Assembly: GCF_003018255.1 (NCBI RefSeq)
Contig: NZ_CP027440.1
DNA: 64,000 nucleotides
Reading direction: 5' to 3' (one strand)
DNA from: Escherichia coli
GTDB lineage: Bacteria > Pseudomonadota > Gammaproteobacteria > Enterobacterales > Enterobacteriaceae
Positions 1 to 64,000 of this stretch are shown here, piece by piece. The position numbers and the translations under genes are program-made. The notes beneath the pieces are model-generated. The model saw only the letters and a program-made list of their open reading frames with translations. It made no database searches and had not been told where the DNA came from. The stretch's first letter is position 1, and every line of letters starts with the position of its first letter.

Positions 1-959
1 CGCTGACCGGTTTACCCGATAACTTTACCGTACAGGCATTTGTGATCCTGCTTTCCGGCGGCATTTTTTGCCTAAGCTCGTGGATTGGTATCAACAACGG
101 TTTGCAACGTCTAAGCAAAATGGTTGGCTGGGGCGCGTTCCTGCTGCCATTACTGGTGCTGATTGTCGGTCCAACCGAATTTATTACCAACAGCATCATC
201 AATGCCATCGGCCTGACCACGCAAAACTTCCTGCAAATGAGCTTATTCACCGATCCGCTTGGCGATGGTTCATTTACCCGCAACTGGACCGTTTTCTACT
301 GGCTGTGGTGGATCTCATACACGCCTGGCGTAGCAATGTTTGTCACCCGCGTTTCCCGCGGTCGTAAGATTAAAGAAGTTATCTGGGGACTGATCCTCGG
401 CAGCACCGTCGGTTGCTGGTTCTTCTTCGGCGTAATGGAAAGCTATGCCATTCACCAGTTTATCAATGGCGTAATCAACGTCCCACAGGTGCTGGAAACA
501 CTGGGCGGCGAGACAGCTGTGCAGCAAGTTCTGATGTCGTTGCCAGCCGGTAAATTGTTCCTCGCCGCATACCTGGGCGTGATGATTATTTTCCTTGCCT
601 CGCATATGGATGCGGTGGCCTACACCATGGCGGCAACCAGTACGCGTAATCTCCAGGAAGGTGACGATCCTGACCGTGGGCTGCGTCTTTTCTGGTGCGT
701 GGTAATTACCCTGATCCCGCTTTCAATTCTTTTCACTGGCGCGTCGCTGGAAACGATGAAAACCACCGTCGTACTCACAGCCCTTCCGTTCCTCGTCATT
801 TTACTGGTGAAAGTCGGCGGATTTATTCGCTGGCTGAAACAGGATTACGCCGACATTCCGGCTCATCATGTTGAACATTATCTCCCGCAGACACCGGTTG
901 AAGTCCTGGAAAAAACGCCAGTGCTCCCTGCGGGAACCGTATTCAAAGGCGACAACTGA
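1..959 (+). CDS. yeaV: BCCT-family transporter YeaV, C-terminal part (5' end lies outside window)
   Basis: Open frame runs from window edge (codon phase starting at nt 3) to stop at 959; hydrophobic TM-rich translation matching betT/caiT-like YeaV; followed by yeaW-yeaX as in E. coli. Confidence 0.85.
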
Positions 960-990
960 GCGCCATCATCCTAACGATAAAGGTATCCCT

Positions 991-2115
991 ATGAGCAATC
1001 TGAGCCCTGACTTTGTACTACCCGAAAATTTTTGCGCTAACCCGCAAGAGGCGTGGACCATTCCTGCCCGTTTTTATACCGATCAGAACGCCTTTGAACA
1101 CGAAAAAGAGAACGTCTTCGCCAAAAGCTGGATTTGCGTCGCTCACAGCAGCGAACTGGCGAATGCCAATGATTATGTGACGCGTGAGATCATTGGCGAA
1201 AGCATTGTGCTGGTACGCGGTCGTGATAAGGTTTTGCGCGCGTTCTATAACGTGTGTCCGCACCGTGGTCATCAGTTGTTGAGCGGCGAAGGGAAAGCGA
1301 AAAATGTGATTACCTGCCCGTATCACGCATGGGCATTCAAACTCGATGGCAACCTGGCCCATGCACGTAACTGCGAAAACGTCGCCAATTTCGATAGCGA
1401 CAAAGCGCAACTGGTTCCGGTGCGTCTGGAAGAATATGCCGGATTCGTCTTCATCAACATGGACCCTAACGCCACCAGCGTAGAAGATCAGTTACCCGGT
1501 CTGGGCGCGAAAGTGCTGGAAGCCTGCCCGGAAGTCCACGATCTGAAACTGGCGGCCCGCTTTACCACCCGCACGCCTGCCAACTGGAAGAACATTGTCG
1601 ATAACTATCTCGAGTGCTATCACTGTGGTCCGGCGCATCCAGGTTTCTCCGACTCCGTACAGGTTGATCGTTACTGGCACACCATGCACGGTAACTGGAC
1701 GCTGCAATACGGTTTCGCCAAACCGTCAGAACAGTCTTTCAAATTCGAAGAGGGCACGGATGCGGCATTCCACGGTTTCTGGCTGTGGCCGTGCACGATG
1801 CTTAACGTCACACCGATCAAAGGGATGATGACGGTCATTTATGAATTCCCGGTGGATTCTGAAACTACCCTGCAAAACTACGATATTTACTTCACCAATG
1901 AAGAGTTAACCGACGAGCAAAAATCGCTGATTGAGTGGTATCGCGATGTGTTCCGTCCGGAAGATTTACGTCTGGTTGAAAGCGTACAGAAAGGGCTGAA
2001 ATCGCGTGGCTATCGTGGTCAGGGGCGCATCATGGCCGACAGTAGCGGTAGCGGAATTTCCGAACATGGTATCGCCCATTTCCATAATCTGCTGGCGCAG
2101 GTGTTTAAGGACTAA
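991..2115 (+). CDS. yeaW: Rieske-type carnitine monooxygenase oxygenase subunit (CntA homolog), 374 aa
   Basis: ATG at 991 inside longer ORF 868..2115; Rieske motif CPHRGHQ...CPYHAW in translation; length matches YeaW. Confidence 0.92.
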   Translation: MSNLSPDFVLPENFCANPQEAWTIPARFYTDQNAFEHEKENVFAKSWICVAHSSELANANDYVTREIIGESIVLVRGRDKVLRAFYNVCPHRGHQLLSGEGKAKNVITCPYHAWAFKLDGNLAHARNCENVANFDSDKAQLVPVRLEEYAGFVFINMDPNATSVEDQLPGLGAKVLEACPEVHDLKLAARFTTRTPANWKNIVDNYLECYHCGPAHPGFSDSVQVDRYWHTMHGNWTLQYGFAKPSEQSFKFEEGTDAAFHGFWLWPCTMLNVTPIKGMMTVIYEFPVDSETTLQNYDIYFTNEELTDEQKSLIEWYRDVFRPEDLRLVESVQKGLKSRGYRGQGRIMADSSGSGISEHGIAHFHNLLAQVFKD

Positions 2116-2170
2116 TGACATCGGCGGCGGTATTTTCCGCCGCTGGGCTGATTTTTGATGGAGTACAGCA

Positions 2171-3136
2171 ATGTCAGACTATCAAATGTTTGAAGTACAG
2201 GTGAGTCAGGTGGAACCGCTTACCGAACAGGTGAAACGCTTCACGCTGGTGGCAACCGATGGCAAACCGCTGCCTGCGTTCACCGGAGGAAGTCACATCA
2301 TAGTGCAGATGAGCGATGGTGATAACCAGTACAGCAATGCGTATTCACTACTGAGTTCACCGCATAACACCTCTAGTTATCAGATTGCCGTTCGACTGGA
2401 GGAAAACTCGCGCGGCGGTTCCCGCTTTTTGCATCAGCAGGTAAAAGTGGGCGATCGGTTAACGATTTCAACGCCTAATAACCTGTTTGCGCTAATTCCC
2501 TCGGCCAGAAAGCATCTGTTTATCGCGGGCGGTATTGGTATCACCCCTTTCCTGTCGCACCTGGCAGAGTTGCAATACAGCGACGTCGACTGGCAGCTAC
2601 ATTACTGCACGCGAAATCCAGAAAGTTGCGCATTTCGTGATGAGCTAGTCCAGCATCCACAGGCTGAGAAAGTTCACTTACATCACTCATCAACCGGAAC
2701 ACGACTGGAATTAGCGCGATTATTGGCGGATATCGAACCTGGCACACATGTTTATACCTGTGGCCCCGAGGCGCTAAATGAAGCGGTAAGAAGTGAAGCT
2801 GCGCGTCTGAACATCGCCGCCGATACGCTGCACTTTGAGCAATTTGCTATCGAAGACAAAACCGGCGATGCATTTACCCTGGTGCTTGCCCGTTCCGGAA
2901 AAGAGTTTGTGGTGCCGGAAGAGATGACTATTTTGCAGGTTATTGAAAATAATAAAGCAGCGAAAGTGGAATGTTTATGTCGTGAAGGGGTATGCGGAAC
3001 CTGCGAAACGGCAATACTGGAAGGTGAAGCTGACCATCGGGATCAGTATTTTAGCGATGAAGAGCGTGCCAGCCAGCAAAGTATGTTGATCTGTTGTTCG
3101 CGCGCGAAGGGTAAACGCCTGGTGTTGGATTTGTAG
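2171..3136 (+). CDS. yeaX: Carnitine monooxygenase reductase subunit (ferredoxin-NAD reductase with C-terminal 2Fe-2S ferredoxin domain), 321 aa
   Basis: ORF 2171..3136; C-terminal CxxGxCxxC ferredoxin motif (CREGVCGTC); adjacent to yeaW. Confidence 0.92.
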   Translation: MSDYQMFEVQVSQVEPLTEQVKRFTLVATDGKPLPAFTGGSHIIVQMSDGDNQYSNAYSLLSSPHNTSSYQIAVRLEENSRGGSRFLHQQVKVGDRLTISTPNNLFALIPSARKHLFIAGGIGITPFLSHLAELQYSDVDWQLHYCTRNPESCAFRDELVQHPQAEKVHLHHSSTGTRLELARLLADIEPGTHVYTCGPEALNEAVRSEAARLNIAADTLHFEQFAIEDKTGDAFTLVLARSGKEFVVPEEMTILQVIENNKAAKVECLCREGVCGTCETAILEGEADHRDQYFSDEERASQQSMLICCSRAKGKRLVLDL

Positions 3137-3140
3137 TTTG

Positions 3141-3182: not shown

Positions 3183-4310
3183 TTACTGCGGATATTCCTG
3201 CAATAAATTGTGTAATGCTTCCGCCATCAGCTCACCACGCCAGCCGGAAATCAGCTCCGGCAAATTGTTCTGCGGTTTCAGTTTCCAGTGCCAGTTCAGC
3301 AGTTGGTTGATTTGCCGACGCGATGCCAGCAATTCGGCGCTGATCTTGTGCGTTTCGCTCACGTCAGTAATCAGCGACTTAATCGCTTTAAACGCTTTAC
3401 GATAACCCGGCATGTCCATCAGGTTAAGCATCGGCTGCGGTAAGGCCTCTTCCGGCAATGCCTGCGCTTTTTCCACCAGCGCCAGCAGCGTTTTACCGTG
3501 AAAGCGGATTTCGCTACCGGATAAGCCCAGGCTGTCCAGTTCGCCTAAACTTCCCGGCATATAACGCGCTACGGACCACAAATGCTCTTCACGCACGACA
3601 AAGTTCACTGCCAGATCGCGCTCCCGCGCCTTGCGCAGTCGCCAGTCGGCTAACAGTTGCAGACAGGCCAGTTGGCGTGTGCGTAACTGCCAGGCATTGG
3701 TGATATCACGCCAGGCATCTTCCGGAGCAACGACTTCCTGACGACGCATTTGCATCAGGCGGCATTCATCCAGCGCCGCAGGTAGCCAGCCGGAGGCCTC
3801 CGTTTCTACCATAAGCTTTGCGGTGATCGGTAACAGATACCAGACATCCGCCGCTGCGTATTCACACTGACGTTCGGTCAGCGGTCTGGCCAGCCAGTCG
3901 GTGCGCGATTCACTCTTGTCCAGCGTAACGCCGGAATACTCTTCCACCATGGAAGCGAAACCCCATGACATCGGGCGTCCGCAGAAGGCAGCAAGGATTT
4001 GCGTGTCAATCAAGGGTTGTGGTAATTCGCCAAAGACATTGAGGAACACTTCCAGATCTTCACTGCCCGCATGGAGAAATTTTGTGATGGACGGATCGCG
4101 CAGGATCGCTTTCAGCGGTGACCAGTCAGAGATCCCGAGGGGATCAATTAGCGCCAGATGCTCACCATCAAAAAGTTGAATTAGACCCAGTTGCGGGTAA
4201 TAGGTGCGCGTACGAACAAATTCAGTATCCAGGGCTATCGCCGGAAAGGCACGGACGGCTTCACACAAAGAAGCCAGCGCATCGTCCGTGGTAATCATTT
4301 GGTAATTCAA
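3183..4310 (-). CDS. rnd: Ribonuclease D, 375 aa
   Basis: ORF 3183..4310 minus; translation matches RNase D (3'-5' exonuclease plus HRDC domains); length exact. Confidence 0.95.
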   Translation of the reverse strand: MNYQMITTDDALASLCEAVRAFPAIALDTEFVRTRTYYPQLGLIQLFDGEHLALIDPLGISDWSPLKAILRDPSITKFLHAGSEDLEVFLNVFGELPQPLIDTQILAAFCGRPMSWGFASMVEEYSGVTLDKSESRTDWLARPLTERQCEYAAADVWYLLPITAKLMVETEASGWLPAALDECRLMQMRRQEVVAPEDAWRDITNAWQLRTRQLACLQLLADWRLRKARERDLAVNFVVREEHLWSVARYMPGSLGELDSLGLSGSEIRFHGKTLLALVEKAQALPEEALPQPMLNLMDMPGYRKAFKAIKSLITDVSETHKISAELLASRRQINQLLNWHWKLKPQNNLPELISGWRGELMAEALHNLLQEYPQ

Positions 4311-4379
4311 ATTGTATTCTCTTTAGTGGGCGTCAAAAAAAACGCCGGATTAACCGGCGTCTGACGACTGACTTAACGC

Positions 4380-6065
4380 TCAGGCTTTATTGTCCACTTT
4401 GCCGCGCGCTTCGTCACGTAATTCTCGTCGCAAAATTTTTCCGACGTTAGATTTCGGTAACTCATCACGAAACTCCACCAGCTTCGGTACTTTGTAGCCC
4501 GTGAGCTGACGGCGGCAAAAAGTCACCAGTGACTCTTCGGTAAGTGATGGATCTTTTTTCACAACGAAGATTTTCACCGCTTCGCCACTGGAGCCAGAAG
4601 GTACGCCAACAGCCGCGACTTCCTGTACGCCAGGATGCTGCATGACGACATCTTCAATCTCGTTGGGATAGACGTTAAAACCGGAAACCAGAATCATGTC
4701 TTTTTTACGATCGACAATACGCAGGAATCCTTCTTCATCCATCACCGCGATGTCGCCAGTGTGTAACCAGCCATTTTTGATGATTTCATCGGTAGCATCC
4801 GGACGCTGCCAGTAACCCAGCATCACCTGCGGTCCTTTGACACAAAGCTCACCTGGTTGACCCGGTGGTACTTCGTTGTCGTCGTCATCCACCAGTTTGG
4901 CTTCCGTCGACGGCACCGGCAAACCGATGCTACCACTATGATAATCAATATCATACGGGTTAACGCTGACCAGCGGCGCACACTCGGTCAGGCCATAACC
5001 TTCCAGCAGATACTGCCCTGTCAGTTTCACCCAACGTTCTGCCACCACTTGCTGAACAGGCATCCCACCGCCTGCGGAAAGGTGCAGACTGGAGAAATCC
5101 AGCTGCTGGAACTCTTTATTGTTCAGCAACGCATTGAATAAGGTGTTAACGCCAGTGATAGCGGTAAACGGATATTTCGCTAACTCTTTTACCAACCCTG
5201 GAATATCGCGCGGGTTAGTGATAAGCAGGTTCTGCCCACCCAGTTCGATAAACAGCAGGCAGTTAATGGTCAGTGCAAAAATGTGATAAAGCGGCAGCGC
5301 CGTCACCACCAGCTCTTTGCCCGGATGCAACAGCGGACCATAGGTCGCGTTAACCTGTTCCAGGTTCGCCAGCATATTGCGGTGAGTCAGCATCGCGCCT
5401 TTCGCCACACCAGTGGTACCGCCGGTGTATTGCAGGAAAGCTAAATCTTCCGGCACCAGTTCGGGTTTGACGTACTGCATCCGGTAGCCGTTGTGCAGGG
5501 CGCTACGAAATGAAATGGCATCTGGCAGATGGTATTTCGGCACCAGACGCTTGATGTATTTAACAACAAAATTGACTACCGTGCCTTTTGCCGTAGATAG
5601 CTGATCGCCCATACGGGTCAGAATTACGTGCTGAACGGCGGTTTTATCAACCACTTTTTCCAGAGTGTGGGCAAAGTTAGACACGATAACAATCGCCGAT
5701 GCGCCGCTATCGTTAAGCTGATGCTCAAGTTCACGCGGGGTATACAACGGGTTAACGTTTACGACAATCATCCCGGCACGCAAAATGCCAAACAGCGCCA
5801 CCGGATATTGCAATAAATTAGGCATCATCAACGCAACGCGATCGCCTTTCTTCAGTCCCAACCCTTGTTGCAAATAAGCGGCAAACGCGCGACTGCGTTC
5901 TTCCAGTTTGCGGAAGGTCATCACCTCCCCCATATTCACAAACGCGGGTTGATCGGCGTAGCGCGCGACCGACTGCTCAAACATATCTACCAGAGATTGA
6001 TAACGGTCAGGGTTGATCTCCGTCGGAACGTCCGCGGGATAACGGTTAAGCCAAACCTTCTTCAA
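4380..6065 (-). CDS. fadD: Long-chain fatty-acid CoA ligase FadD, 561 aa, TTG start
   Basis: ORF 4380..6131 minus; known N-terminus [10 protein letters not shown] begins at the TTG codon at 6063-6065; AMP-binding motif [12 protein letters not shown] present. Confidence 0.93.
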
Positions 6066-6269: not shown

Positions 6270-6851
6270 TTATTCAGTTACAACTGTTTGTACTCTCGCG
6301 GGACCGGGATTATACCAGCCCCATCCACCGTAGCCATAGGGCCAGCCACGACCGCCATAAAACCATGGATCAATCGGCTGAGGCGGCATAATCACCTGCT
6401 GGGTTAAATGCCAACGTTTGTAACCCGTTACTTGCATCACCATAAATTTATAGGGCGTGTTGCCGATTTTGCCGTCAACCGCACCGGTGATTGGCCCAAC
6501 TACCGTAACCAGTTGTCCACGGAAATCTACCGGGTCCAGAAAACCGTTCACATCGGCATAAATGCGCCCGCGTGAAGGTTCTCCCAAAGTTGGTCTGGCT
6601 CCGCTGTCCAGCGGTACGGTAGCAATTTCCAGGCGGGTTTTCCCTTGCTGGTTTTGTACCGCAACCACTTTGCCACCAAAGCGTGCCTCCTGACCAACGT
6701 ACAGCTGCGGCGCACTCATCACCCGAACTAAATCTTGTTGCGGCGTGGGACTGCTGCCTTTAATGGCGTCCGGCACAGTAACACAACCGCTCAGCATTAG
6801 CGCAAACGTACCTGCCAGTATGCCTTTGATAACATTCTTTTGAACCGCCAT
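6270..6851 (-). CDS. yeaY: Slp-family outer-membrane lipoprotein YeaY, 193 aa
   Basis: ORF 6270..6851 minus; lipoprotein signal with LSGC lipobox; Slp-like sequence. Confidence 0.9.
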
Positions 6852-6888: not shown

Positions 6889-7584
6889 TCATTCTTTGCC
6901 CGGAAGTTTCTTCCATGCGACGTTGTTACGTAAATAAACCGGTTCGGCATGTTCCACCGCCACCGTTTTACTCTCGGCAAACATCTGACAAGCAATCGGC
7001 AGCATATCTTCTGCAGCGGGCAGTAACACTTCGCCATCGCACAGGGCCAAACCGCTCTCTTTACCGAGATCCGGCCAGGCTTGCCAGCCCGTCCCTACCG
7101 TCACCCATTCGCCGGAAAGCTGTTGCATCCGTTCATGAACGAGTTCAGGTTTCAGTACGGCTTCGGTTTCTTCACCGTGCCAGATACCGTTTTCATCACG
7201 CTGATATTCGGCCCAGTAAACTTCGCCCATTCGCGCGTCAATGGCTGCCAGCACGCGTGTTGCGCCGTTTTTGCGCCACGCCCCTTGCGCCATCGTCATT
7301 AGCGTGGAGACGCCAATCATCGGTAATTCCGCGCCAAGCGCCAGCCCTTGCGCGATGCCAATACCAATGCGCACGCCAGTAAAGCTACCGGGGCCGCGCC
7401 CGTAAGCCAGAGCGTTAATATCAGTCAGGGAAGTTCCGCTGGTGGTCAGGATATCCTGCACCATCGGTAAGATTCGTTGAGTATGTTCACGAGGGCAAAG
7501 CTCAAAATGAGCGTTGACAGTACCGTCGTTCCACAGGGCGACAGAGCAGGCCTCTGTCGCGGTATCGATAGCCAGAATTCGCAT
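6889..7584 (-). CDS. tsaB: tRNA t6A37 threonylcarbamoyladenosine biosynthesis protein TsaB (YeaZ), 231 aa
   Basis: ORF 6889..7584 minus; N-terminus [17 protein letters not shown] typical of TsaB. Confidence 0.93.
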
Positions 7585-7641: not shown

Positions 7642-9552
7642 TTACCTGGAGGATGGTATCGCAAGGAAACGAACCGCACGGGCAATGTCACGGGTGCGCG
7701 GCGCTGGCGGCAGACTGGCGAGAAACGTCGCGCCGTAAGGGCGCATCACCAGCCGATTGTCGCAAATCACCAGCACGCCGCGATCGTCAGCGTCGCGAAT
7801 CAGTCGCCCTACCCCCTGTTTGAGAGTAATGACCGCATCCGGCAGCTGTACTTCATCGAACGGGTCGCCACCGCGCAAACGGCAATCTTCCATGCGCGCT
7901 TTTAACAGTGGATCATCCGGCGAGGTAAACGGCAATTTGTCGATAATCACCAATGACAGCGTATCGCCACGCACGTCCACCCCTTCCCAGAAGCTGCTGG
8001 TTGCCACAAGAAGCGCGTTACCGGCGCTGACAAATTGCTGCAACAGTTGCCCTTTGCTGGTTTCCCCCTGCAACAAAACGGGAAGCGTCATGGTAGCGCG
8101 GAACTGCTCGGCCAGATCGCGCATCATGGCGTGCGAGGTACAAAGCATAAAACAACGACCGTTGTTAGCTTCGATGATCGGTCGCAACATTGCCGCCAGT
8201 TGCCGTGCGGAGCCCGGTTGATTGGTTTGCGGCAGGTTGCGCGGCACACAGAGTAACGCCTGGCGGCTGTAATCAAACGGGCTGGGTAACAGCAACGACT
8301 CTGCCTGTTCAATGCCAAGCCGCGAGGTAAAATGATGCAGATCGTCATTCACCGACAGCGTTGCCGAGGTAAAAATCCAGCTACCTGGCTTTTGCGCCAT
8401 TAACTCTTTGAATTTATCCGCCACGCTAAGCGGCGTCAGCGCGAGAGTGAAATGGCGCGAGGTACATTCGTACCAGTAGCTGTAACCCGGCTGATTAATC
8501 TCTTTTAGCCGTTTGAGTCGCGTGCGATACAACGTGGCGCGTTCAAATGCCGCATCCAGCAAGGCGGAACGCCCCAGCGAAAGTTTCGCCACGTCATAAC
8601 AAAGTTCCAGGGTGTCATCGAGCAGTAAAAACGCCCGCTGAATTTGCGGATTAGCTAACAGTTCGCGCAGGTTGCCACGATAACCAGGCTCACCGAGTTG
8701 CAGACGAAAATCCTGCGCGCTCTGGGCAAGGCGGTCGGCGCACTTTTGTAACTGCTGGGTGTCTTTTAATTCGGTGCGGTAGGCGATGGTGATGTCTTTT
8801 GCCAGGTCGAGCAGTTGTCGACTGGAGAGTGACTGACCAAAATACTGGCTGGCAATGTCAGGCAGTTGGTGGGCTTCGTCGAAGATCATCACGTCAGCTT
8901 CCGGGATCAGTTCGCCAAATCCACTCTCTTTCACCACCATATCCGCCAGAAAGAGATGATGGTTTACCACCACCACATCGGCGTCCATCGCTTTTTTGCG
9001 TGCTTTGACCACAAAGCAATCTTTATACATCGGGCAGTCGCTGCCAAGACAGTTGTCGTTGGTGCTGGTGACCAGCGGCCACGCCTGTGAATCTTCCGCC
9101 ACGCTGACGCAGGTGCTGATATCACCATCGACTGTTTGATTAGACCAGGAGCGCAGCAGGATCACATCGCTTAAGATTTGTACCGGCAGATCGCCCCCCG
9201 CCAGCGCCTGCTGTTCGAGACGCTCGAGGCAGAGGTAGTTTGAGCGCCCTTTCAGCAACGCCACATTGCCCGTGTATTTCAATGCCTTTGAGACTGTTGG
9301 CAAATCGCGGCTGTAGAGCTGATCCTGCAACGCTTTTGAGCCGGTCGAGATAATGACTTTCTTTTTCGCCCGCAGCGCAGGAGCCAGGTAAGCGTAGGTT
9401 TTGCCCGTACCGGTTCCTGCTTCCACCACCAGCGGCTGGCCTTTTTCTATCGCCTGGGTGACGGCTACCGCCATCTGTCGCTGTGGTTCTCGCGGCTTAA
9501 AGCCTGGTATCGCTTTCGCCAGCTGACCGTCTGGTGCAAAATCGTCCGTCAC
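7642..9552 (-). CDS. yoaA: DinG-family ATP-dependent DNA helicase YoaA, 636 aa
   Basis: ORF 7642..9552 minus; Walker A GTGTGKT, DEAH box (FDEAHQL), Cys cluster consistent with Fe-S helicase. Confidence 0.93.
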   Translation of the reverse strand: MTDDFAPDGQLAKAIPGFKPREPQRQMAVAVTQAIEKGQPLVVEAGTGTGKTYAYLAPALRAKKKVIISTGSKALQDQLYSRDLPTVSKALKYTGNVALLKGRSNYLCLERLEQQALAGGDLPVQILSDVILLRSWSNQTVDGDISTCVSVAEDSQAWPLVTSTNDNCLGSDCPMYKDCFVVKARKKAMDADVVVVNHHLFLADMVVKESGFGELIPEADVMIFDEAHQLPDIASQYFGQSLSSRQLLDLAKDITIAYRTELKDTQQLQKCADRLAQSAQDFRLQLGEPGYRGNLRELLANPQIQRAFLLLDDTLELCYDVAKLSLGRSALLDAAFERATLYRTRLKRLKEINQPGYSYWYECTSRHFTLALTPLSVADKFKELMAQKPGSWIFTSATLSVNDDLHHFTSRLGIEQAESLLLPSPFDYSRQALLCVPRNLPQTNQPGSARQLAAMLRPIIEANNGRCFMLCTSHAMMRDLAEQFRATMTLPVLLQGETSKGQLLQQFVSAGNALLVATSSFWEGVDVRGDTLSLVIIDKLPFTSPDDPLLKARMEDCRLRGGDPFDEVQLPDAVITLKQGVGRLIRDADDRGVLVICDNRLVMRPYGATFLASLPPAPRTRDIARAVRFLAIPSSR

Positions 9553-9683: not shown

Positions 9684-10028
9684 ATGACTATCGTTCGTAT
9701 CGATGCTGAAGCCCGCTGGTCTGATGTGGTGATCCACAACAACACGCTCTACTACACTGGTGTACCGGAAAACCTCGACGCCGATGCTTTCGAGCAAACT
9801 GCCAACACGCTGGCGCAGATTGACGCCGTGCTGGAAAAACAGGGCAGCAATAAATCGAGCATTCTGGATGCCACCATTTTCCTGGCTGATAAAAACGACT
9901 TCGCGGCGATGAATAAAGCGTGGGATGCCTGGGTTGTCGCGGGTCATGCGCCGGTGCGCTGCACGGTACAAGCGGGTTTGATGAACCCGAAGTATAAAGT
10001 TGAAATTAAGATTGTGGCTGCGGTGTAA
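9684..10028 (+). CDS. yoaB: RidA/YjgF-family protein YoaB, 114 aa
   Basis: Internal ATG at 9684 of ORF 9636..10028 gives known length; RidA-like translation. Confidence 0.88.
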   Translation: MTIVRIDAEARWSDVVIHNNTLYYTGVPENLDADAFEQTANTLAQIDAVLEKQGSNKSSILDATIFLADKNDFAAMNKAWDAWVVAGHAPVRCTVQAGLMNPKYKVEIKIVAAV

Positions 10029-10449
10029 GCTTTATCGAAGCAAAATAAGTCAGACGATAATTTATCGATAATACTGGTCGGTTTTACATAAATCGACCAG
10101 AGATTAAGATATTACTGTTGATGCTCCTGCTAATTCATTATTTATTTTTATATTTTCAATTTTAGCTATAAAGCTAACTATATAAATAAACATAACCATG
10201 CCGTTGTGTTCGCCCTTCGATTAGCATCTCTGGTTTTCTTTCTTAGCTGAACAATTTGGTTATAGCGTGAGAACTGACCGTCAATTTTCTCTCTCTTACT
10301 GGATAACACACCATGAGCTGCTACCTTTAAAACACCTGAATGTCAACAGGTTAACTCGTGCCATATCGTTATAATCCCTTTGATATTAGATGCAAATTAA
10401 GGTCATATATAGCCTTATCGATAACATGGTTAATTTTAAGGATAAGAAT

Positions 10450-10749
10450 ATGCCTGCTGTAATAGATAAAGCCCTGGATTTCATTGGTGCCATGGATGTA
10501 TCAGCACCAACACCAAGTTCGATGAATGAAAGCACGGCGAAGGGAATCTTTAAATATTTAAAAGAACTGGGAGTACCCGCGAGCGCAGCCGATATTACGG
10601 CGCGAGCTGACCAGGAAGGCTGGAACCCGGGGTTCACGGAAAAAATGGTTGGATGGGCAAAAAAAATGGAGTCTGGTGAACGCATTGTGATTAAAAATCC
10701 TGAATACTTTTCAACATATATGCAGGAAGAACTAAAAGCACTGGTCTAA
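10450..10749 (+). CDS. yoaC: DUF1889 protein YoaC, 99 aa
   Basis: Internal ATG at 10450 of ORF 10390..10749; TATAAT -10 hexamer about 80 bp upstream. Confidence 0.85.
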   Translation: MPAVIDKALDFIGAMDVSAPTPSSMNESTAKGIFKYLKELGVPASAADITARADQEGWNPGFTEKMVGWAKKMESGERIVIKNPEYFSTYMQEELKALV

Positions 10750-10777
10750 GTTAAATTTATATCAGCATAAATGGGTC

Positions 10778-53837: not shown

Positions 53838-53964
53838 AAACGACTGTCACTGTCCTAATCTTATACGACATCCGAATGAGATTAATTTATCGCCATCGCG
53901 GCGTTATTTCATTCGGATTTCATGTTCAAGCAACACCTGGTTGTTTCAGTCAACGGAGTATTAC

Positions 53965-55407
53965 ATGTCCAGAAGGCTTCGCAGAACAAAAATCGTTACC
54001 ACGTTAGGCCCAGCAACAGATCGCGATAATAACCTTGAAAAAGTTATCGCAGCGGGTGCCAACGTTGTACGTATGAACTTTTCTCACGGCTCGCCTGAAG
54101 ATCACAAAATGCGCGCGGATAAAGTTCGTGAAATTGCCGCAAAACTGGGGCGTCATGTGGCTATTCTGGGTGACCTCCAGGGGCCCAAAATTCGTGTATC
54201 CACCTTTAAAGAAGGCAAAGTTTTCCTCAATATTGGGGATAAATTCCTGCTCGACGCCAACCTGGGTAAAGGTGAAGGCGACAAAGAAAAAGTCGGTATC
54301 GACTACAAAGGCCTGCCTGCTGACGTCGTGCCTGGTGACATCCTGCTGCTGGACGATGGTCGCGTTCAGTTAAAAGTACTGGAAGTTCAGGGCATGAAAG
54401 TGTTCACCGAAGTGACCGTCGGTGGTCCCCTCTCCAACAATAAAGGTATCAACAAACTTGGCGGCGGTTTGTCGGCTGAAGCGCTGACCGAAAAAGACAA
54501 AGCAGACATTAAGACTGCAGCGTTAATTGGCGTAGATTACCTGGCTGTCTCCTTCCCACGCTGCGGCGAAGATCTGAACTATGCCCGTCGGCTGGCACGC
54601 GATGCAGGATGTGATGCGAAAATTGTTGCCAAGGTTGAACGTGCGGAAGCCGTTTGCAGCCAGGATGCAATGGATGACATCATCCTCGCCTCTGACGTGG
54701 TAATGGTTGCTCGCGGCGACCTCGGTGTGGAAATTGGCGATCCGGAACTGGTCGGCATTCAGAAAGCGTTGATCCGTCGTGCGCGTCAGCTTAACCGCGC
54801 AGTAATCACGGCGACCCAGATGATGGAGTCAATGATTACTAACCCGATGCCGACGCGTGCAGAAGTCATGGACGTAGCAAACGCCGTTCTGGATGGTACT
54901 GACGCTGTGATGCTTTCTGCAGAAACTGCTGCTGGTCAGTATCCGTCAGAAACCGTTGCAGCCATGGCACGCGTTTGCCTGGGCGCGGAAAAAATCCCGA
55001 GCATCAACGTTTCTAAACACCGTCTGGACGTTCAGTTCGACAATGTGGAAGAAGCCATTGCCATGTCAGCAATGTACGCGGCTAACCACCTGAAAGGCGT
55101 TACGGCGATCATCACCATGACCGAATCGGGTCGTACCGCGCTGATGACCTCCCGTATCAGCTCTGGTCTGCCAATTTTCGCCATGTCACGCCATGAACGT
55201 ACGCTGAACCTGACTGCTCTCTATCGCGGCGTTACGCCGGTGCACTTTGATAGCGCTAATGACGGCGTAGCGGCTGCCAGCGAAGCGGTTAATCTGCTGC
55301 GCGATAAAGGTTACTTGATGTCTGGTGACCTGGTGATTGTCACCCAGGGCGACGTGATGAGTACCGTGGGTTCTACTAATACCACGCGTATTTTAACGGT
55401 AGAGTAA
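53965..55407 (+). CDS. pykA: Pyruvate kinase II (PykA), 480 aa
   Basis: Internal ATG at 53965 ([19 protein letters not shown]) of ORF 53824..55407; SD ggag upstream. Confidence 0.95.
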
Positions 55408-55514: not shown

Positions 55515-55540
55515 GCCTCTCCTCGCGAGAGGCATTTTTT
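55515..55540 (+). terminator. Intrinsic terminator after pykA; U-tract overlaps lpxM stop codon
   Basis: gcctctc-ctcgc-gagaggc followed by atttttt. Confidence 0.7.
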
Positions 55541-56510
55541 ATTTGATGGGATAAAGATCTTTGCGCTTATACGGTTGGATTTCGCCCGGTTTGCGAGTTT
55601 TCAGCAATTTTAATATCCAGGTGTATTGTTCTGGTCGCGGACCAACAAAAATCTCGACTTCTTCATTCATCCGCCGCGCAATCGTATGATCATCCGCCTC
55701 TAACAGATCATCCATCGGTGGGCGCACCTGAATCGTCAAACGATGCGTTTTGCCATCATAAATCGGAAACAGCGGTACAACGCGCGCACGGCACACTTTC
55801 ATCAAACGACCAATCGCAGGCAACGTCGCTTTATAGGTGGCAAAGAAATCAACAAATTCGCTGTGCTCTGGGCCATGATCCTGATCGGGTAAATAATATC
55901 CCCAGTAGCCCTGACGTACCGACTGGATGAATGGTTTAATACCATCATTTCTCGCATGCAGACGACCGCCAAAGCGACGACGCACCGTGTTCCAGACATA
56001 ATCAAAAACCGGGTTGCCCTGATTATGGAACATCGCTGCCATTTTCTGCCCTTGCGAGGCCATCAGCATGGCAGGAATATCGACGGCCCAACCGTGCGGC
56101 ACCAGAAAAATCACTTTCTCGTTATTACGCCGCATCTCTTCGATAATCTCCAGCCCTTGCCAGTCAACGCGCGGCTGAATTTTCTCCGGCCCGCGTATTG
56201 CCAACTCAGCCATCATTGCCATCGCTTGCGGCGCGGTGGCAAACATCTCATCTACAATCGCTTCGCGTTCAGCTTCACTACGTTCTGGAAAGCAGAGCGA
56301 CAGATTGATTAACGCACGACGGCGTGAGCTTTTTCCCAGTCGTCCGGCAAAACGTCCCAGCCGTGCCAGAATGGGATCACGGAACTTTGGCGGCGTTAAA
56401 GCGATACCCGCCATCGCGGCTACGCCCAGCCATGCTCCCCAGTAGCGCGGGTGGCGAAAGGATTTATCAAACTCAGGAATGTATTCGCTATTATTTTTTT
56501 TCGTTTCCAT
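55539..56510 (-). CDS. lpxM: Lipid A myristoyl acyltransferase LpxM (MsbB), 323 aa
   Basis: ORF 55539..56510 minus. Confidence 0.95.
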
Positions 56511-56629
56511 GCTTTTCCAGTTTCGGATAAGGCAAAAATCAATCTGGTGATAGTGTAGCGGCGCAACTTGCCCCGCACCAAATAAAAAAAGCCGGTACTG
56601 ACTGCGTACCGGCTGCGAATGGATGTTAA

Positions 56630-57952
56630 TTAATCAAACCGTAGCTGCGGCACAATCTCTTTGGCCTGCGCCAGGAATTCGCGACGATCGGAGCCGGTCA
56701 GCCCTTCGGTACGCGGCAGTTTTGCCGTCAGCGGGTTTACGGCCTGCTGGTTTATCCATACTTCATAGTGCAGATGCGGCCCGGTTGAACGTCCGGTATT
56801 ACCGGAAAGCGCGATACGGTCGCCACGTTTCACCTTCTGTCCCGGTTTCACCAGGATCTTGCGCAAGTGCATATAACGCGTGGTGTAGCTGCGACCATGA
56901 CGAATAGCCACATAATAACCTGCTGCGCCACTGCGTTTGGCAACCACCACTTCACCGTCACCCACTGAAAGCACTGGCGTACCTTGTGGCATGGCAAAAT
57001 CAACACCTCTGTGTGGCGCAACGCGACCGGTCACCGGATTAGTACGACGCGGGTTAAAGTTAGATGAGATACGGAACTGTTTCGCCGTCGGGAATCGCAA
57101 GAATCCTTTCGCCAGACCAGTACCGTTACGATCGTAGAATTTGCCATCTTCAGCGCGGATTGCGTAATAATCTTTACCTTCTGAACGCAAACGTACGCCC
57201 AGCAGCTGGCTTTGCTCACGTTTACCATCAAGCATTTCTCGTGACATTAACACCGCAAATTCATCGCCTTTTTTCAGTTTGCGGAAATCCATTTGCCACT
57301 GCATGGCTTTAATCACTGCGCTCACTTCGGCGCTGGTTAAACCGGCGTTTCTGGCGCTGGCAACAAAGCTTCCCCCGACGGTACCTTTCAGCAGATTGTT
57401 GACCCACTCTCCTTGCTGCATTTCGCTGGTCATTTTAAAACCGTTAGCGGCAGTACGGTCATAGGTTCGGGTTTCACGACGAGACACTTCCCAGGTGAGG
57501 CGCTGCAGTTCGCCGTCCGCGGTTAATGTCCAGGAGAGTTGTTGACCGATTTTCAGGTTACGCAATTCTTTGTCGGCAGCAGCCAGTTGGGTGATATCAC
57601 CCATATCAATACCATACTGATTGAGAATGCTGCTTAGCGTATCGCCAGTGGAAACAACATATTCATGCACGCCCGCTTCACCGGCGATTTTGTCATCCAG
57701 TTCATCCTGGGGAATGGCTTCATCTTCTTGTGCAGCTTGATCAATCGGCTCACTGGCTTCAGGTAAGAGCGAACGAATTTCGTTCTGTTCCAGCTCAATG
57801 GTTTTGACAATTGGCGTGGCATCGCGGTGATAAACATAGGGCCGCCAGACAGCGACGGCCAGAGTAAGAACGGTGAGCGACCCTAACATAACGCGGTGTG
57901 GTCGCGGTAAATTATTAAACGCCAGGGCGACAGAGCGGGCTATCTGTTGCAC
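56630..57952 (-). CDS. mepM: Murein DD-endopeptidase MepM (YebA), LysM plus M23 peptidase, 440 aa
   Basis: ORF 56630..57952 minus; M23 motifs HRGVDF and HLHYE. Confidence 0.94.
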
Positions 57953-57967
57953 GTAATCACTTCCTCA

Positions 57968-58900
57968 TTAATCTCCTTTCAGGCAGCTCGCATACTGGTT
58001 GGCTAATTGATTCAGGAATTCTGAATAGCTTGTTTTACCCAGTTTGATATTCGTCCCCAGGGGATCCAACGTTCCCATACGAACGGATGTCCCTCGTGCG
58101 ACGCTCTCAACGACCGCTGGCCTGAACTGTGGCTCAGCAAAAACGCAGGTTGCTTTTTGCTCAACCAACTGTGTTCTTATTTCATGTAAACGCTGCGCGC
58201 CAGGTTGAATCTCAGGGTTAACGGTAAAATGACCAAGCGGTGTCAGTCCGAACTGTTTTTCGAAGTAGCCGTAAGCATCGTGAAAAACGAAATAACCTTT
58301 CCCCTTGAGCGGCGCGAGCTCGTTACCAACCTGCGTTTCGGTTGAGGCTAATTGTGCCTCAAAATCCTTCAGGTTGGCGTCAAGTTTGGCTCGACTTTGC
58401 GGCATAAGTTCCACTAATTTTCCATGGATTGCAACCGCTGTAGCCCGCGCTATCTCTGGGGAAAGCCAAAGATGCATGTTGAAATCGCCGTGATGGTGAT
58501 CTTCGTCACTTTTTTCCGCGTGGTCGTGATCATCATCATCGTCGTGAATACTTTTCATCAGCAGCGGTTTCACATCTTCTAGCTGCGCAATCGTTACCTG
58601 TTTCGCTTCTGGTAATTTACTTACCGGTTTTTGCATGAACGCTTCCATCTCCGGGCCAACCCAAACGACTAAGTCCGCGTTCTGTAAGCGTTTTACATCC
58701 GATGGACGCAGTGAATAATCATGTTCTGAAGCGCCGTCAGGCAGTAAAACCTGCGTTTCTGTTACCCCATCAGCAATGGCAGAAGCGATGAACCCAACGG
58801 GTTTAAGCGAAGCGACAACGGCGGCATCTGCGGCCTGTGTTGCACCGCCCCAGAGAGCGGCGGATAATGCTGCGAAAAGAAGCGTTTTTTTATGTAACAT
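57968..58900 (-). CDS. znuA: Periplasmic zinc-binding protein ZnuA, 310 aa
   Basis: Internal ATG ([23 protein letters not shown]) of ORF 57968..59026; His/Asp-rich loop [21 protein letters not shown]. Confidence 0.94.
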
Positions 58901-58978: not shown

Positions 58979-59734
58979 ATGACAAGTCTGGTTTCCCTGG
59001 AAAATGTCTCGGTTTCTTTTGGCCAACGCCGCGTCCTCTCTGATGTGTCGCTGGAACTTAAACCTGGAAAAATTTTGACTTTACTTGGGCCAAACGGCGC
59101 AGGTAAGTCGACACTGGTACGGGTAGTGCTCGGGCTGGTAACACCCGATGAAGGGGTTATCAAGCGCAACGGAAAACTGCGCATCGGCTATGTACCGCAG
59201 AAGCTGTATCTCGACACCACGTTGCCACTGACCGTAAACCGTTTTTTACGCTTACGCCCTGGCACACATAAAGAAGATATTTTGCCTGCACTGAAACGTG
59301 TCCAGGCCGGGCATCTGATTAACGCACCGATGCAAAAGCTCTCGGGTGGCGAAACGCAGCGTGTACTGTTAGCGCGAGCATTGTTAAATCGACCGCAATT
59401 ATTAGTGCTGGATGAACCCACTCAGGGCGTGGATGTGAATGGTCAGGTGGCGTTATATGACCTTATTGACCAACTGCGTCACGAACTGGATTGTGGCGTT
59501 TTAATGGTATCTCACGATCTGCATCTGGTAATGGCAAAAACCGATGAAGTGCTTTGCCTGAATCACCACATTTGTTGTTCCGGTACACCGGAAGTTGTTT
59601 CCCTGCATCCGGAGTTTATTTCTATGTTTGGTCCTCGTGGTGCTGAACAACTGGGTATCTATCGCCATCATCATAATCATCGTCACGATTTACAGGGACG
59701 AATTGTTTTGCGTCGGGGAAATGATCGCTCATGA
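58979..59734 (+). CDS. znuC: Zinc ABC transporter ATPase ZnuC, 251 aa
   Basis: ORF 58979..59734; Walker [13 protein letters not shown] signature LSGGETQR; His-rich C-terminus. Confidence 0.95.
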
Positions 59735-60516
59735 TTGAATTATTATTTCCCGGTTGGTTAGCCGGGATCATGCTCGCCTGTGCCGCGGGTCCGCTGGGTT
59801 CGTTTGTGGTCTGGCGTCGTATGTCTTATTTCGGTGATACGCTGGCTCATGCCTCATTACTTGGCGTCGCGTTTGGTTTGTTGCTGGACGTGAATCCATT
59901 CTATGCGGTGATTGCAGTTACGCTGTTGTTGGCGGGCGGTCTGGTATGGCTGGAGAAGCGCCCACAGCTGGCGATCGACACATTATTAGGGATTATGGCG
60001 CACAGTGCCCTGTCGCTGGGCCTGGTGGTCGTTAGTCTGATGTCTAACATTCGTGTTGATTTGATGGCTTATCTGTTCGGTGATTTGCTGGCAGTGACGC
60101 CAGAAGATCTCATCTCTATTGCGATTGGCGTGGTCATCGTGTTGGCGATTCTGTTCTGGCAATGGCGCAATTTGCTGTCAATGACGATTAGCCCGGATCT
60201 GGCGTTTGTTGATGGTGTGAAATTACAGCGCGTGAAATTGTTGTTGATGCTGGTGACAGCATTGACAATTGGTGTAGCGATGAAATTTGTCGGCGCGTTG
60301 ATTATTACTTCGCTGCTGATTATTCCTGCAGCTACAGCGCGTCGCTTTGCCCGCACGCCGGAACAGATGGCCGGTGTCGCTGTTTTGGTGGGAATGGTGG
60401 CAGTAACTGGCGGTTTAACCTTTTCCGCATTTTACGATACGCCGGCGGGTCCGTCGGTAGTGCTATGTGCGGCACTGTTATTTATTATCAGTATGATGAA
60501 AAAGCAGGCCAGCTAA
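59731..60516 (+). CDS. znuB: Zinc ABC transporter permease ZnuB, 261 aa
   Basis: ORF 59731..60516; start overlaps znuC stop by 4 nt. Confidence 0.95.
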
Positions 60517-60534
60517 TCTGTCGCTGAACACATT

Positions 60535-61677
<1,143 letters not shown>

Positions 61678-61682
61678 TTACC

Positions 61683-62294
61683 TCATAACGCGGCGCGTAG
61701 GGCTTCGCGAATTAATGTTTCACTGCTGGCGTCAGGGCGAGCGATTTTGCTCACCATACGGCTTGCTTCTTGTGGTTTATAGCCCAGCGCCACCAGCGCA
61801 GCAACCGCTTCCTGTTCAGCATCGTCGGTCGCCGGGCTGGCAGGTGACGTGAGTACCAGGTCGGCGGCTGGCGTAAAGAGATCGCCATGCAAACCTTTAA
61901 ATCGGTCTTTCATTTCGACAATCAAGCGTTCGGCGGTTTTTTTGCCAATACCCGGCAGTTTCACCAGTGCCCCCACTTCTTCACGCTCAACGGCATTAAC
62001 GAACTGCTGCGCTGACATTCCGGAGAGGATCGCCAGCGCCAACTTCGGGCCGACGCCGTTGGTTTTGATCAACTCTTTGAACAACGTGCGCTCTTGTTTA
62101 TTGTTAAAACCGTACAGCAGTTGCGCGTCTTCACGCACCACAAAGTGGGTGAAAACGATCGCTTCCTGACCCGCTTCAGGGAGTTCATAAAAACAGGTCA
62201 TCGGCATATGCACTTCATAGCCTACGCCGCCCACTTCAATTAACACCAGCGGGGGTTGTTTTTCAATGATGATGCCTCTGAGTCTGCCTATCAC
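61683..62294 (-). CDS. ruvA: Holliday-junction DNA-binding protein RuvA, 203 aa, GTG start
   Basis: ORF 61683..62294 minus. Confidence 0.96.
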
Positions 62295-62343
62295 ATGACG
62301 CTCCTGCGTAATGAATCAAAGATAATGCTGTATGATAAAAAAA

Positions 62344-62363
62344 TGCTGGATAGATATCCAGCG
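62344..62363. promoter_or_regulatory. LexA (SOS) box of ruvAB promoter
   Basis: tgCTGGatagatatCCAGcg, a perfect palindrome about 50 bp upstream of ruvA start. Confidence 0.75.
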
Positions 62364-62568
62364 AAGGATGAAGAAAACTTGCGAGGTGTCCCGATGATCT
62401 GAAAAATGGCGCAGTATAATTTATTCTACAGATTATATTGGAAGCAAATATTTAAATATTACATATTCAGCGAAGAAATGTGTAATAAAAATACACATCG
62501 CGACCCCTGAAAAAATAAATTTTTTATGCTATTACGTATATTCATATCTATTTCAATGGAATGACAAC

Positions 62569-63171
62569 GTGAATATTAATTATCCTGCTGAATATGAAAT
62601 TGGTGATATCGTCTTTACATGTATAGGTGCTACCTTATTTGGTCAAATATCAGCTGCATCAAATTGCTGGAGTAATCACGTCGGGATCATTATCGGTCAT
62701 AACGGTGAAGACTTCCTGGTTGCAGAAAGCCGGGTTCCCCTTTCAACCATCACCACGCTATCTCGTTTTATTAAACGTTCGTCTAATCAACGCTATGCTA
62801 TAAAGCGATTAGACGCTGGGCTGACAGAACAACAAAAACAACGAATTGTTGAACAGGTTCCCTCCCGGCTACGCAAACTTTACCACACCGGTTTTAAATA
62901 CGAATCTTCGCGCCAGTTCTGTTCAAAATTTGTTTTTGATATTTATAAAGAAGCGCTATGTATTCCGGTGGGTGAAATAGAGACGTTTGGAGAATTGTTA
63001 AATAGCAATCCGAATGCAAAACTCACTTTCTGGAAATTCTGGTTCTTAGGTTCTATTCCGTGGGAGCGTAAAACCGTCACGCCAGCCAGTTTGTGGCATC
63101 ATCCGGGTTTGGTGTTGATTCATGCGGAGGGAGTGGAAACGCCTCAGCCGGAACTGACCGAGGCGGTATAA
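62569..63171 (+). CDS. yebB: Uncharacterized protein YebB (permuted papain-like / YiiX-type fold suspected), 200 aa
   Basis: ORF 62569..63171; preceded by very AT-rich spacer. Confidence 0.85.
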
Positions 63172-63172
63172 C

Positions 63173-63694
63173 TTAACGCAGTCGCCCTCTCGCCAGGTTC
63201 AGCCGCGATTCGCTCATCTGCATCGCATTCTGACTGACGTGACAATGGGTAATCGCGATAGCTAATGCATCGGCAGCATCCGCCTGTGGATTAGCGGGCA
63301 GTTTCAGCAAGGTGCGGACCATATGCTGCACCTGGCTTTTTTCGGCACTACCAATACCTACCACCGTTTGCTTTACCTGACGTGCCGCATATTCAAATAC
63401 CGGCAATTCCTGATTCACCGCTGCCACAATCGCCACGCCGCGCGCCTGACCCAGTTTCAGGGCTGAGTCAGCGTTCTTCGCCATAAAGACTTGTTCAATG
63501 GCGAAATAATCAGGCTGGAACTGGGTGATGATTTCCGTCACGCCCGCATAGATGAGCTTCAGACGAGACGGTAAATCATCCACTTTGGTGCGTATGCATC
63601 CGCTACCCAGGTAGGACAGTTGCCTGCCTACCTGGCGGATGACGCCATAGCCGGTCACGCGCGAACCCGGGTCAATGCCGAGAATAATAGCCAT
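63173..63694 (-). CDS. ruvC: Holliday-junction resolvase RuvC, 173 aa
   Basis: Second ATG of ORF 63173..63697 ([18 protein letters not shown]). Confidence 0.94.
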
Positions 63695-63728
63695 CACGCG
63701 TCTCCGTTTTGCTGTTTAGCAGGCCTCA

Positions 63729-64000
63729 TCAGAGAGTCGCTGCAACCTCATCAGAGATTTCACCGTTATGGTAAACTTCCTGCACGTCGTCGCAATCTTC
63801 CAGCATATCGATCAGACGCATCAGTTTCGGTGCGGTTTCTGCATCCATATCAGCTTTGGTGGACGGGATCATGGAAACTTCCGCGCTGTCTGCTTTCAGA
63901 CCTGCCGCTTCCAGAGCGTCGCGTACTTTGCCCATTTCTTCCCATGCAGTGTAGACATCAATCGCGCCGTCATCATAGGTCACAACGTCTTCAGCACCGG
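63729..64000 (-). CDS. yebC: YebC/PmpR-family transcriptional regulator, C-terminal part (5' end outside window)
   Basis: Minus-strand frame open to window edge; ORF track shows 63729..63983 as the last Met-initiated segment. Confidence 0.85.

Follow-up and report, generated by a model that had tools for sequence, protein, structure and literature searches.

The question raised by the 64,000-nucleotide stretch of Escherichia coli DNA analyzed here (contig NZ_CP027440.1; hereafter, the window) was whether an undescribed system is carried among its genes or in its noncoding gaps. The window almost certainly represents a natural allele of the yeaV-to-yebC segment of the E. coli core chromosome, equivalent to approximately positions 1,883,675 to 1,947,682 of strain K-12 MG1655, and is fully syntenic with that segment, without an inserted element or a hidden system. 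It comprises only K-12-annotated housekeeping genes, small-protein genes, leaders, and small RNAs, all in K-12 order. This is a clean negative, and the window can leave the search for undescribed systems.

Alignment of the window to K-12 MG1655

Positions 1,884,000 to 1,952,000 of MG1655 (NC_000913.3), together with their annotation, were aligned to the window by BLAST; window bases 1 to 325 lie upstream of that stretch and were covered by a 100% match in the megablast search with the first third of the window (see below). Window positions 326 to 63998 matched MG1655 positions 1,884,000 to 1,947,680 in one alignment at 98.08% identity; mismatches numbered 1,200, and 12 gap openings accounted for 20 gapped columns. 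No indel exceeded 7 bp, this being the size of a deletion between yeaX and rnd at window position 3151, and base-level alignment revealed no insertion of more than 1 bp in the window relative to K-12.

All 65 complete MG1655 coding genes, whose coordinates were transferred through the alignment, were found in unchanged order, each having its K-12 length, start codon, and terminal stop and lacking internal stops. Amino acid identity of the 65 gene products to those of K-12 was 97.3 to 100%, except for YobI (21 amino acids, three changes), and 88.6% of the window was covered by annotated genes or small RNAs. In comparison with the MG1655 segment from yeaV (b1801) to yebC (b1864), gene order, gene number, gene lengths, start codons, small RNAs, and leaders were the same, and spacers agreed to within 7 bp; the differences consisted of 1.9% point substitutions, which were mostly synonymous, and 12 indels of 1 to 7 bp. 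The window thus differs from K-12 itself and is a separate natural allele. The first-pass annotation, made by eye, had described the window as syntenic, tightly packed E. coli core chromosome in which every credible open reading frame (ORF) was a K-12 gene of the expected length and in the expected order, and it had proposed an alignment to MG1655 as the way to find any insertion or divergent block. The single alignment, with its 65 intact genes, bore out this description and showed no indel of more than 7 bp and no divergent block, and the by-eye synteny call thus held up against both base-level alignment and domain searches.

A large indel or a strain-specific gene was ruled out, as there were no more than 8 gapped bases in any of the comparisons with MG1655 and the three closest genomes. 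Pseudogenes and frameshifts were likewise not found among the genes of the window; clustered 1- to 2-bp indels in yeaV (728 to 731) and in the part of pabB encoding the C terminus (12457 to 12468) keep the reading frame. These indels mark allelic patches that distinguish the window from MG1655, and because the same variants occur in the natural isolate CFSAN018748, they are natural alleles.

Divergence from K-12 was uneven: 2-kb stretches differed by 0.5% to 3.8%, and among 500-bp bins the maximum was 7.2%, reached inside yoaA (8001 to 8500). Since the YoaA protein is 99.8% identical to that of K-12, the divergence there is almost entirely synonymous. Blocks with 4 to 7% mostly synonymous divergence from MG1655 were found in yoaA, letB, rsmF, purT, and znuB-ruvB; higher-divergence blocks of this kind would be typical of homologous recombination between E. 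coli lineages.

Occurrence among E. coli genomes

Each third of the window was compared by megablast with 5,426 complete E. coli genomes from RefSeq, 5,425 of which matched. At least 80% of the query was matched in one place in 5,418, 5,187, and 4,972 genomes for the first, second, and last third, respectively, and this near-universal presence identifies the segment as core rather than accessory. The RefSeq features under the best matches ran from yeaV to yebC, with the same gene list as the window. CFSAN018748, JNE23-011, and JNE112863 were collinear with the entire query and had the same RefSeq gene calls, although none of them was the best match across the whole window. JNE23-011 differed in carrying an IS200C copy between htpX and prc (locus L086, 7158 to 7616), whereas the corresponding window spacer (28894 to 29084) and K-12 have no insertion; the matches to JNE112863 and to GPEC chicken isolates spanned a similar extra 710 bp.

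Several points weigh against the reading of the window as a natural allele of wholly known content. No identical genome was present among the 5,426, the top identities being 99.0%, 99.4%, and 99.8% for the three thirds; the strain of the window therefore lies outside that collection. In addition, the best-matching genome switched after the first third, from CFSAN018748 (99.0% over positions 1 to 22000) to JNE23-011 (99.4% and 99.8% in the second and last thirds, which make up the remaining 42 kb, with JNE112863 also close at 99.4 to 99.8%), which suggests a mosaic. Furthermore, no catalogued element was found by Rfam or in the annotation in the yobF-distal part of the yobF-yebO spacer or in the yoaB-yoaC gap. 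Finally, the cross-genus comparison, in which 80 enterobacterial loci around yoaE with 10-kb flanks were collected and the neighboring genes were located in each, reached only from approximately 6,300 to 27,900 of the window, so that the results on spacer conservation apply to that part. With regard to the mosaic, the uneven divergence, the changing best match, and the near-unchanged amino acids of the yoaA bin suggest that recombination may have assembled the window from E. coli lineages.

Features of the window

The features are listed in order along the window, with plus and minus denoting the strand; where no basis is given, the assignment was transferred from MG1655.

1-959, plus: yeaV, gene for a BCCT-family transporter, truncated at its 5' end by the start of the window (MG1655 transfer, RefSeq)
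991-2115, plus: yeaW, carnitine monooxygenase oxygenase subunit (same length as b1802, 100% amino acid identity)
2171-3136, plus: yeaX, carnitine monooxygenase reductase subunit (97.5% amino acid identity)
3183-4310, minus: rnd, RNase D (99.2% amino acid identity; TTG start, as in K-12)
4336-4421, minus: sroD small RNA at the rnd-fadD junction (RF00370, 115 bits, E = 1.4e-22)
4380-6065, minus: fadD (100% amino acid identity)
6270-6851, minus: yeaY, Slp-family lipoprotein
6889-7584, minus: tsaB
7642-9552, minus: yoaA, DinG-family DNA repair helicase, the most diverged DNA of the window (4.2%) with a 99.8% identical protein (NCBIfam repair_DEAH_YoaA, 1.5e-277)
9684-10028, plus: yoaB, RidA family
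10029-10868, no strand: low-G+C islet, consisting of a 421-bp gap, yoaC, and a 3' spacer, between the convergent genes yoaB and yoaH (locus comparison)
10074-10100, plus: hairpin CTGGTCG...CGACCAG downstream of yoaB, putatively terminator-like (both-arm change in E. whittamii)
10314-10449, plus: conserved yoaC upstream region, probable promoter and 5' untranslated region (UTR) (alignment of 4 Escherichia sequences)
10450-10749, plus: yoaC, DUF1889 (PF08986, 1.1e-49; PDB 2es9/2jn8, 3.5e-41)
10869-11048, minus: yoaH, UPF0181 (MG1655 transfer, Pfam)
11122-12483, plus: pabB, with a C-terminal RILK-to-KILR patch that is a natural allele (same allele in CFSAN018748)
12487-13065, plus: nudL
13249-14613, plus: sdaA
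14744-16342, plus: pdeD
16346-17902, minus: yoaE (MG1655 transfer; 85 to 98% identical across 80 genome loci)
17890-18048, minus: yoaL, small-protein gene upstream of yoaE (MG1655 annotation)
18365-21063, plus: manXYZ, mannose phosphotransferase system operon
21118-21576, plus: yobD
21778-21874, plus: probable manganese (yybP-ykoY) riboswitch in the mntP leader (RF00080, 41.9 bits, cut-off 45, E = 6.4e-8)
22005-22571, plus: mntP
22568-23377, minus: rlmA
23468-23928, minus: yobF-cspC transcript, with cspC at 23543-23752 and yobF at 23765-23908 (cspA-type thermoregulator model RF01766, 139.7 bits)
23909-24010, minus: yobF promoter and 5' UTR, near-invariant across Enterobacteriaceae (85 to 99% conserved, 21 sequences)
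24011-24577, minus: yobF-distal part of the yebO-yobF spacer, rich in AT, containing short conserved boxes and a hairpin resembling a terminator of yebO (spacer alignment)
24578-25083, minus: yebO and mgrB (MG1655 transfer, Pfam)
25242-25481, plus: yobH (MG1655 transfer, Pfam)
25625-26416, minus: kdgR
26593-27966, plus: yebQ
28012-32445, minus: htpX, prc, proQ, and msrC
32575-36460, plus: letA-letB (yebS-yebT)
36540-38629, plus: rsmF, yebV, and yebW (MG1655 transfer, Pfam)
38630-39286, minus: pphA
39383-39653, plus: RyeA (SraC) small RNA (RF00101, 176 bits at 39417-39561, cut-off 37; MG1655 annotation transferred)
39421-39524, minus: SdsR (RyeB) small RNA (RF00111, 114.4 bits, cut-off 38)
39681-41285, minus: yebY, yebZ (copD), and yobA (MG1655 transfer, Pfam)
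41424-43098, plus: holE, yobB, and exoX
43095-47063, minus: ptrB, yebE, yebF, and yebG (MG1655 transfer, Pfam)
47197-48375, plus: purT
48431-52630, minus: eda, edd, and zwf (all 100% amino acid identity)
52968-55407, plus: yebK (hexR) and pykA
55539-58900, minus: lpxM, mepM, and znuA
58979-60516, plus: znuC and znuB
60507-60664, no strand: REP-like palindromes between znuB and ruvB (naRNA4 matches below threshold, RF02564, 44.4 and 37.9 bits, cut-off 59.5)
60664-62498, minus: ruvB, ruvA, and yobI
62569-63171, plus: yebB, permuted papain-like amidase (MG1655 transfer, Pfam)
63173-64000, minus: ruvC, and yebC truncated to its 3' part by the end of the window (MG1655 transfer, RefSeq)

Mobile DNA, repeats, and base composition

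No integrase, recombinase, or transposase was found among the K-12 genes of the window or among the Pfam domains of its 79 shadow ORFs, defined as all ORFs of at least 80 amino acids whose stop codon is not that of any annotated gene. Similarly, ARAGORN detected no tRNA or tmRNA in the 64-kb window. A repeat finder applied to the whole window returned only chance-level imperfect pairs of 20 to 37 nt scattered within genes, the direct repeats among them being only 20 to 32 nt, and Tandem Repeats Finder, also applied to the whole window, returned no array and only three weak in-gene rows. The earlier statement that the window has no integrase, transposase, or repeat array was confirmed by these searches, and the accompanying statement that it has no GC-skewed block was correct at the island scale, no kilobase-scale island being present, although four 1-kb bins had low G+C contents of 0.385 to 0.43, namely, 10001 to 11000 (0.404), 21001 to 22000 (0.429), 24001 to 25000 (0.385), and 62001 to 63000 (0.414), compared with approximately 0.51 for the window. 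The first of these bins corresponds to the yoaC islet, a genus-level insertion by comparison, which is common to K-12 and is not mobile-element-like.

Shadow ORFs and matches to defense models

When the shadow ORFs were searched for defense or secretion domains, a check that the first-pass annotation had proposed, none matched a PADLOC family, and a single marginal Pfam family, DUF4129 (E = 2.2e-4), was obtained. With this match treated as chance, the shadow ORFs were rejected as hidden genes. In addition, ten function-unknown genes, yoaC, yoaH, yebV, yebW, yebO, yobH, yebB, yobB, yebE, and yebY, each matched their own Pfam family and gave no meaningful PADLOC match.

The PADLOC scan of the 64 annotated window proteins did return several matches. 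Among them were that of YoaA to typeIV_DinG (PDLC01439, "CAS-IV-A; associated"), which extended over the full length with an E value of 3.1e-178, and those of ExoX to the Cas-associated model DEDDh (1.5e-29), ZnuC to mad3 (6.4e-28; ABC-ATPase-type models, AriA-like), and RsmF to mad2 (6.2e-25), which was also matched by RlmA. Further matches were those of RNase D to the C terminus of BrxHI, CspC to a cold-shock-domain model, and RuvB to IetA. These matches are to generic domains (helicase, exonuclease, ABC-ATPase, cold-shock, and methyltransferase) on scattered housekeeping genes, and no defense system is present. The typeIV_DinG model alone cannot separate Cas-associated DinG from YoaA, which calls for caution in automated defense scans.

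RNA elements and the large noncoding gaps

The five large gaps measured 669 bp (yobF-yebO), 462 bp (yoaE-manX, or 316 bp counting the annotated small gene yoaL), 428 bp (yobD-mntP), 421 bp (yoaB-yoaC), and 394 bp (pphA-yebY), in agreement with the approximate sizes of 670, 460, 430, 420, and 390 bp given previously. These gaps had been attributed to leaders, promoters, and small RNAs that are already known. The explanation proved right for the mntP leader (probable riboswitch), the pphA-yebY gap (SdsR/RyeA), the yoaE-manX gap (yoaL), and the yobF-proximal spacer (published work), but it did not extend to the yobF-distal approximately 550 bp or to the 421-bp yoaB-yoaC gap. The results thus support the view that the sentence on the gaps was slightly overstated and that the overall conclusion stands. 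Judged from the locus comparison, the yobF-distal spacer and the yoaB-yoaC gap both look like ordinary regulatory or spacer DNA, and the noncoding gaps would serve as ordinary promoter, 5' UTR, and terminator regions of the flanking genes.

The window was scanned with Rfam at curated thresholds and then at a relaxed threshold. The curated thresholds yielded sroD, the cspA-type thermoregulator over yobF-cspC, and the SdsR/RyeA pair, which overlap on opposite strands between pphA and yebY; all of these were expected. The mntP-leader match to RF00080 fell just under its curated threshold, spanned the full model, and lay 131 nt upstream of mntP; according to a review, the leader of E. coli mntP is regarded as a manganese riboswitch, to which Rho-dependent termination is coupled. 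The relaxed threshold also gave REP-like matches, scoring below the curated threshold, between znuB and ruvB and between pykA and lpxM. The mntP-leader and REP-like matches were likewise among the expected elements. As a separate observation on the mntP leader, RefSeq/PGAP annotates in close relatives a 40-amino-acid "hypothetical protein" (WP_000547919.1) whose stop codon overlaps the first codon of mntP (ATGA). In the window, this frame is open from 21763 to 22008, comprising 81 codons counted from a TTG, and it overlaps the riboswitch match; the PGAP start codon could not be placed there, and no gene is annotated for this frame in MG1655.

The cross-genus comparison showed that yoaA-yoaB, yoaH-pabB, yoaE, yobD-mntP-rlmA, and cspC-yobF-yebO-mgrB are conserved and syntenic in other Enterobacteriaceae (Citrobacter, Salmonella, Enterobacter, Klebsiella, and others). 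The distance between rlmA and cspC differed, being 165 bp in E. coli and approximately 2.1 kb in most Citrobacter, Salmonella, Enterobacter, and Klebsiella loci, where extra DNA is present.

The yoaC islet

The islet at 10029 to 10868 consists of 840 bp with a G+C content of approximately 0.40 between the convergent core genes yoaB and yoaH. Among the 68 loci that had both yoaB and yoaH, yoaC was found only in the 2 Escherichia-species loci and was absent at the site in the 66 non-Escherichia loci, and the stop codons of yoaB and yoaH were no more than 30 bp apart in 51 of the 68. Therefore, given the restriction of yoaC to Escherichia and the short yoaB-yoaH distance elsewhere, 10029 to 10868 is an Escherichia-lineage islet common to K-12; the gap upstream of yoaC is confined to Escherichia in the same way.

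Within the gap, the 136 nt directly upstream of yoaC (10314 to 10449) had 90 to 96% column identity among 4 Escherichia sequences and contained a perfect TATAAT at 10370 to 10375, compared with 67 to 88% identity in the rest of the gap. In E. whittamii, both arms of the hairpin that follows yoaB have changed (CTGGCC/GGCCAG) such that the hairpin is preserved, and the yoaB-proximal 285 bp were the least conserved part of the gap among Escherichia species. From these sequence features, the yoaB-yoaC gap is, in all probability, conventional DNA that belongs to a known gene, namely, promoter, terminator, and spacer.

The yobF-yebO spacer

The yobF-yebO spacer was 441 to 763 bp long in 37 of the 63 loci in which both genes were present, and these loci represented many genera. 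In the remaining 26 loci, it was approximately 1.46 to 1.58 kb long, the extra DNA being an ORF of 331 to 337 amino acids resembling an MBL-fold hydrolase (681 to 1676 in locus L023; 2562 to 3575 in locus L029). This ORF is absent between yebO and yobF in E. coli, Citrobacter, Salmonella, and Klebsiella. The possibility that the E. coli spacer is a decayed MBL-fold gene was rejected, as tblastn against the window gave no match in the spacer, and the best matches (E = 0.025 and weaker) were inside ptrB and other genes.

The two parts of the spacer differed in conservation. In an alignment of 21 spacers, the 100 nt adjoining yobF (24010 to 23909) were 85 to 99% identical and included a sigma-70-like site at 23990 to 23961. 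The promoters yobFp1 and yobFp2 have been placed in this yobF-proximal part, and the yobF-cspC operon was recently reported to be an adaptive mutational hotspot (PMC13162491); moreover, the yobF 5' UTR is targeted by OxyS (PMC10965054), and a binding site for the RpoN/NtrC holoenzyme was located within the spacer by gSELEX (PMC8743547). The yobF-distal approximately 550 bp were AT-rich, with 13 to 65% identity per 20-nt bin in the same alignment, and contained boxes that are conserved across genera in the loci with the shorter spacer: a CGAAACGTTT palindrome near 24345 to 24336, two GCATAA-N3-TGCA motifs near 24200 and 24040, TTCATTATT near 24308, and TTGAGCTATGGTAAAAA near 24127 to 24110. These short boxes upstream of yobF-cspC look like operator or promoter elements and would point to regulators that have yet to be assigned, a minor point for E. 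coli specialists. Interpretation of the conserved CTGGA...TTGAGC box as a sigma-54 site was rejected by eye because the GC of the -12 element is wrongly spaced in the window and in most species; the rejection applies to that candidate position only. The sole "conserved" spacer ORF, at 23898 to 23981 on the plus strand, is antisense within the near-invariant 5' UTR.

Alternative explanations for parts of the window

The strong E values obtained for YoaA, ExoX, ZnuC, and RsmF could be taken to mean that these genes, together with rlmA, mark a cryptic defense locus. This interpretation can be dismissed: the PADLOC-positive genes lie 13 to 50 kb apart amid housekeeping genes, and housekeeping models matched more strongly, with 1.5e-277 for YoaA (NCBIfam repair_DEAH_YoaA) and 1.7e-264 for RsmF. 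ExoX, ZnuC, and RlmA are housekeeping proteins by K-12 and RefSeq annotation, with 99.3 to 100% amino acid identity to the K-12 proteins, and all of the genes concerned belong to the core, occurring in essentially all E. coli genomes. Nor was there a CRISPR or other repeat array in the window or any csf or cas neighbor; in particular, for CRISPR-Cas type IV-A, none of csf1, csf2, csf3, and csf5 was found beside yoaA, whose neighbors are tsaB and yoaB. The defense-locus reading was rejected on gene spacing, housekeeping identity, and the lack of partner genes. A smaller candidate for acquired DNA is the yoaC islet, which might be a horizontally acquired cassette with a function of its own, such as a toxin/antitoxin-like or defense-like gene with an upstream regulatory RNA. 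Its low G+C content relative to the window, the lack of yoaC in all 66 non-Escherichia loci that have both yoaB and yoaH, the close spacing of the two stop codons in most of the 68 loci, the presence of unrelated inserts at the same junction in Phytobacter, a metagenome bin, Atlantibacter sp. RC6, and E. whittamii, and the assignment of yoaC to a family of unknown function (DUF1889) are in keeping with such a cassette. Nevertheless, the cassette is extremely improbable, since yoaC has long been annotated in K-12 (b1810) and structures of its family have been solved (2es9 and 2jn8), the islet contains no second gene, repeats, or recombinase, and the part of the gap nearest yoaB is the least conserved. 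Moreover, yoaC had no PADLOC match and no phage homolog, and its "plasmid" matches were to megabase-size replicons or mislabeled chromosomes; its status as phage or plasmid cargo was rejected on these grounds.

The yebO-yobF spacer (23909 to 24577) might in turn conceal an undescribed element with a function, for example, a regulatory module of its own or a gene for a small RNA or small protein, and a spacer of approximately 650 bp would persist in many genera for that reason. The retained length in 37 of the 63 loci, the cross-genus boxes in the yobF-distal part, and the lack of any Rfam family or annotation over 23929 to 24577 agree with this idea, but it is very unlikely. The conserved stretches are only 10 to 20 nt long, as is typical of transcription factor sites and promoters, with 13 to 40% identity between the boxes; no small ORF of the yobF-distal spacer was retained in any other species among the compared loci; the published promoters, OxyS-targeted 5' UTR, and RpoN/NtrC site already lie in the spacer; and the spacer content is not fixed, as an unrelated MBL-fold gene occupies it in 26 of the 63 loci. 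There is a somewhat better, although still small, chance that 24011 to 24577 controls the yobF-cspC stress operon through several inputs in a way not yet described, or that it gives rise to a long leader or a small RNA for this operon, as the kept length and the four or five boxes might indicate. Ordinary regulatory and spacer DNA within a wholly known core segment remains the preferred reading of both gaps.

Additional observations in the compared loci

The yoaB/yoaH junction harbored other inserts in addition to yoaC: two Phytobacter species and a metagenome bin of unclassified Enterobacteriaceae have a gene of approximately 350 amino acids there, Atlantibacter sp. RC6 has a different 900 bp of low G+C content, and E. 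whittamii has one additional ORF, which is pentapeptide-repeat-like. The convergent junction looks like a small hotspot of lineage-specific insertions, which may be of minor interest to E. coli specialists. In addition, one compared locus (L030; CACSKA010000003.1), titled "Chryseobacterium sp. 18061," had a typical enterobacterial yoaE neighborhood, with YoaE 88% and CspC 100% identical to the window proteins, and its title looks like a mislabel or the result of contamination.

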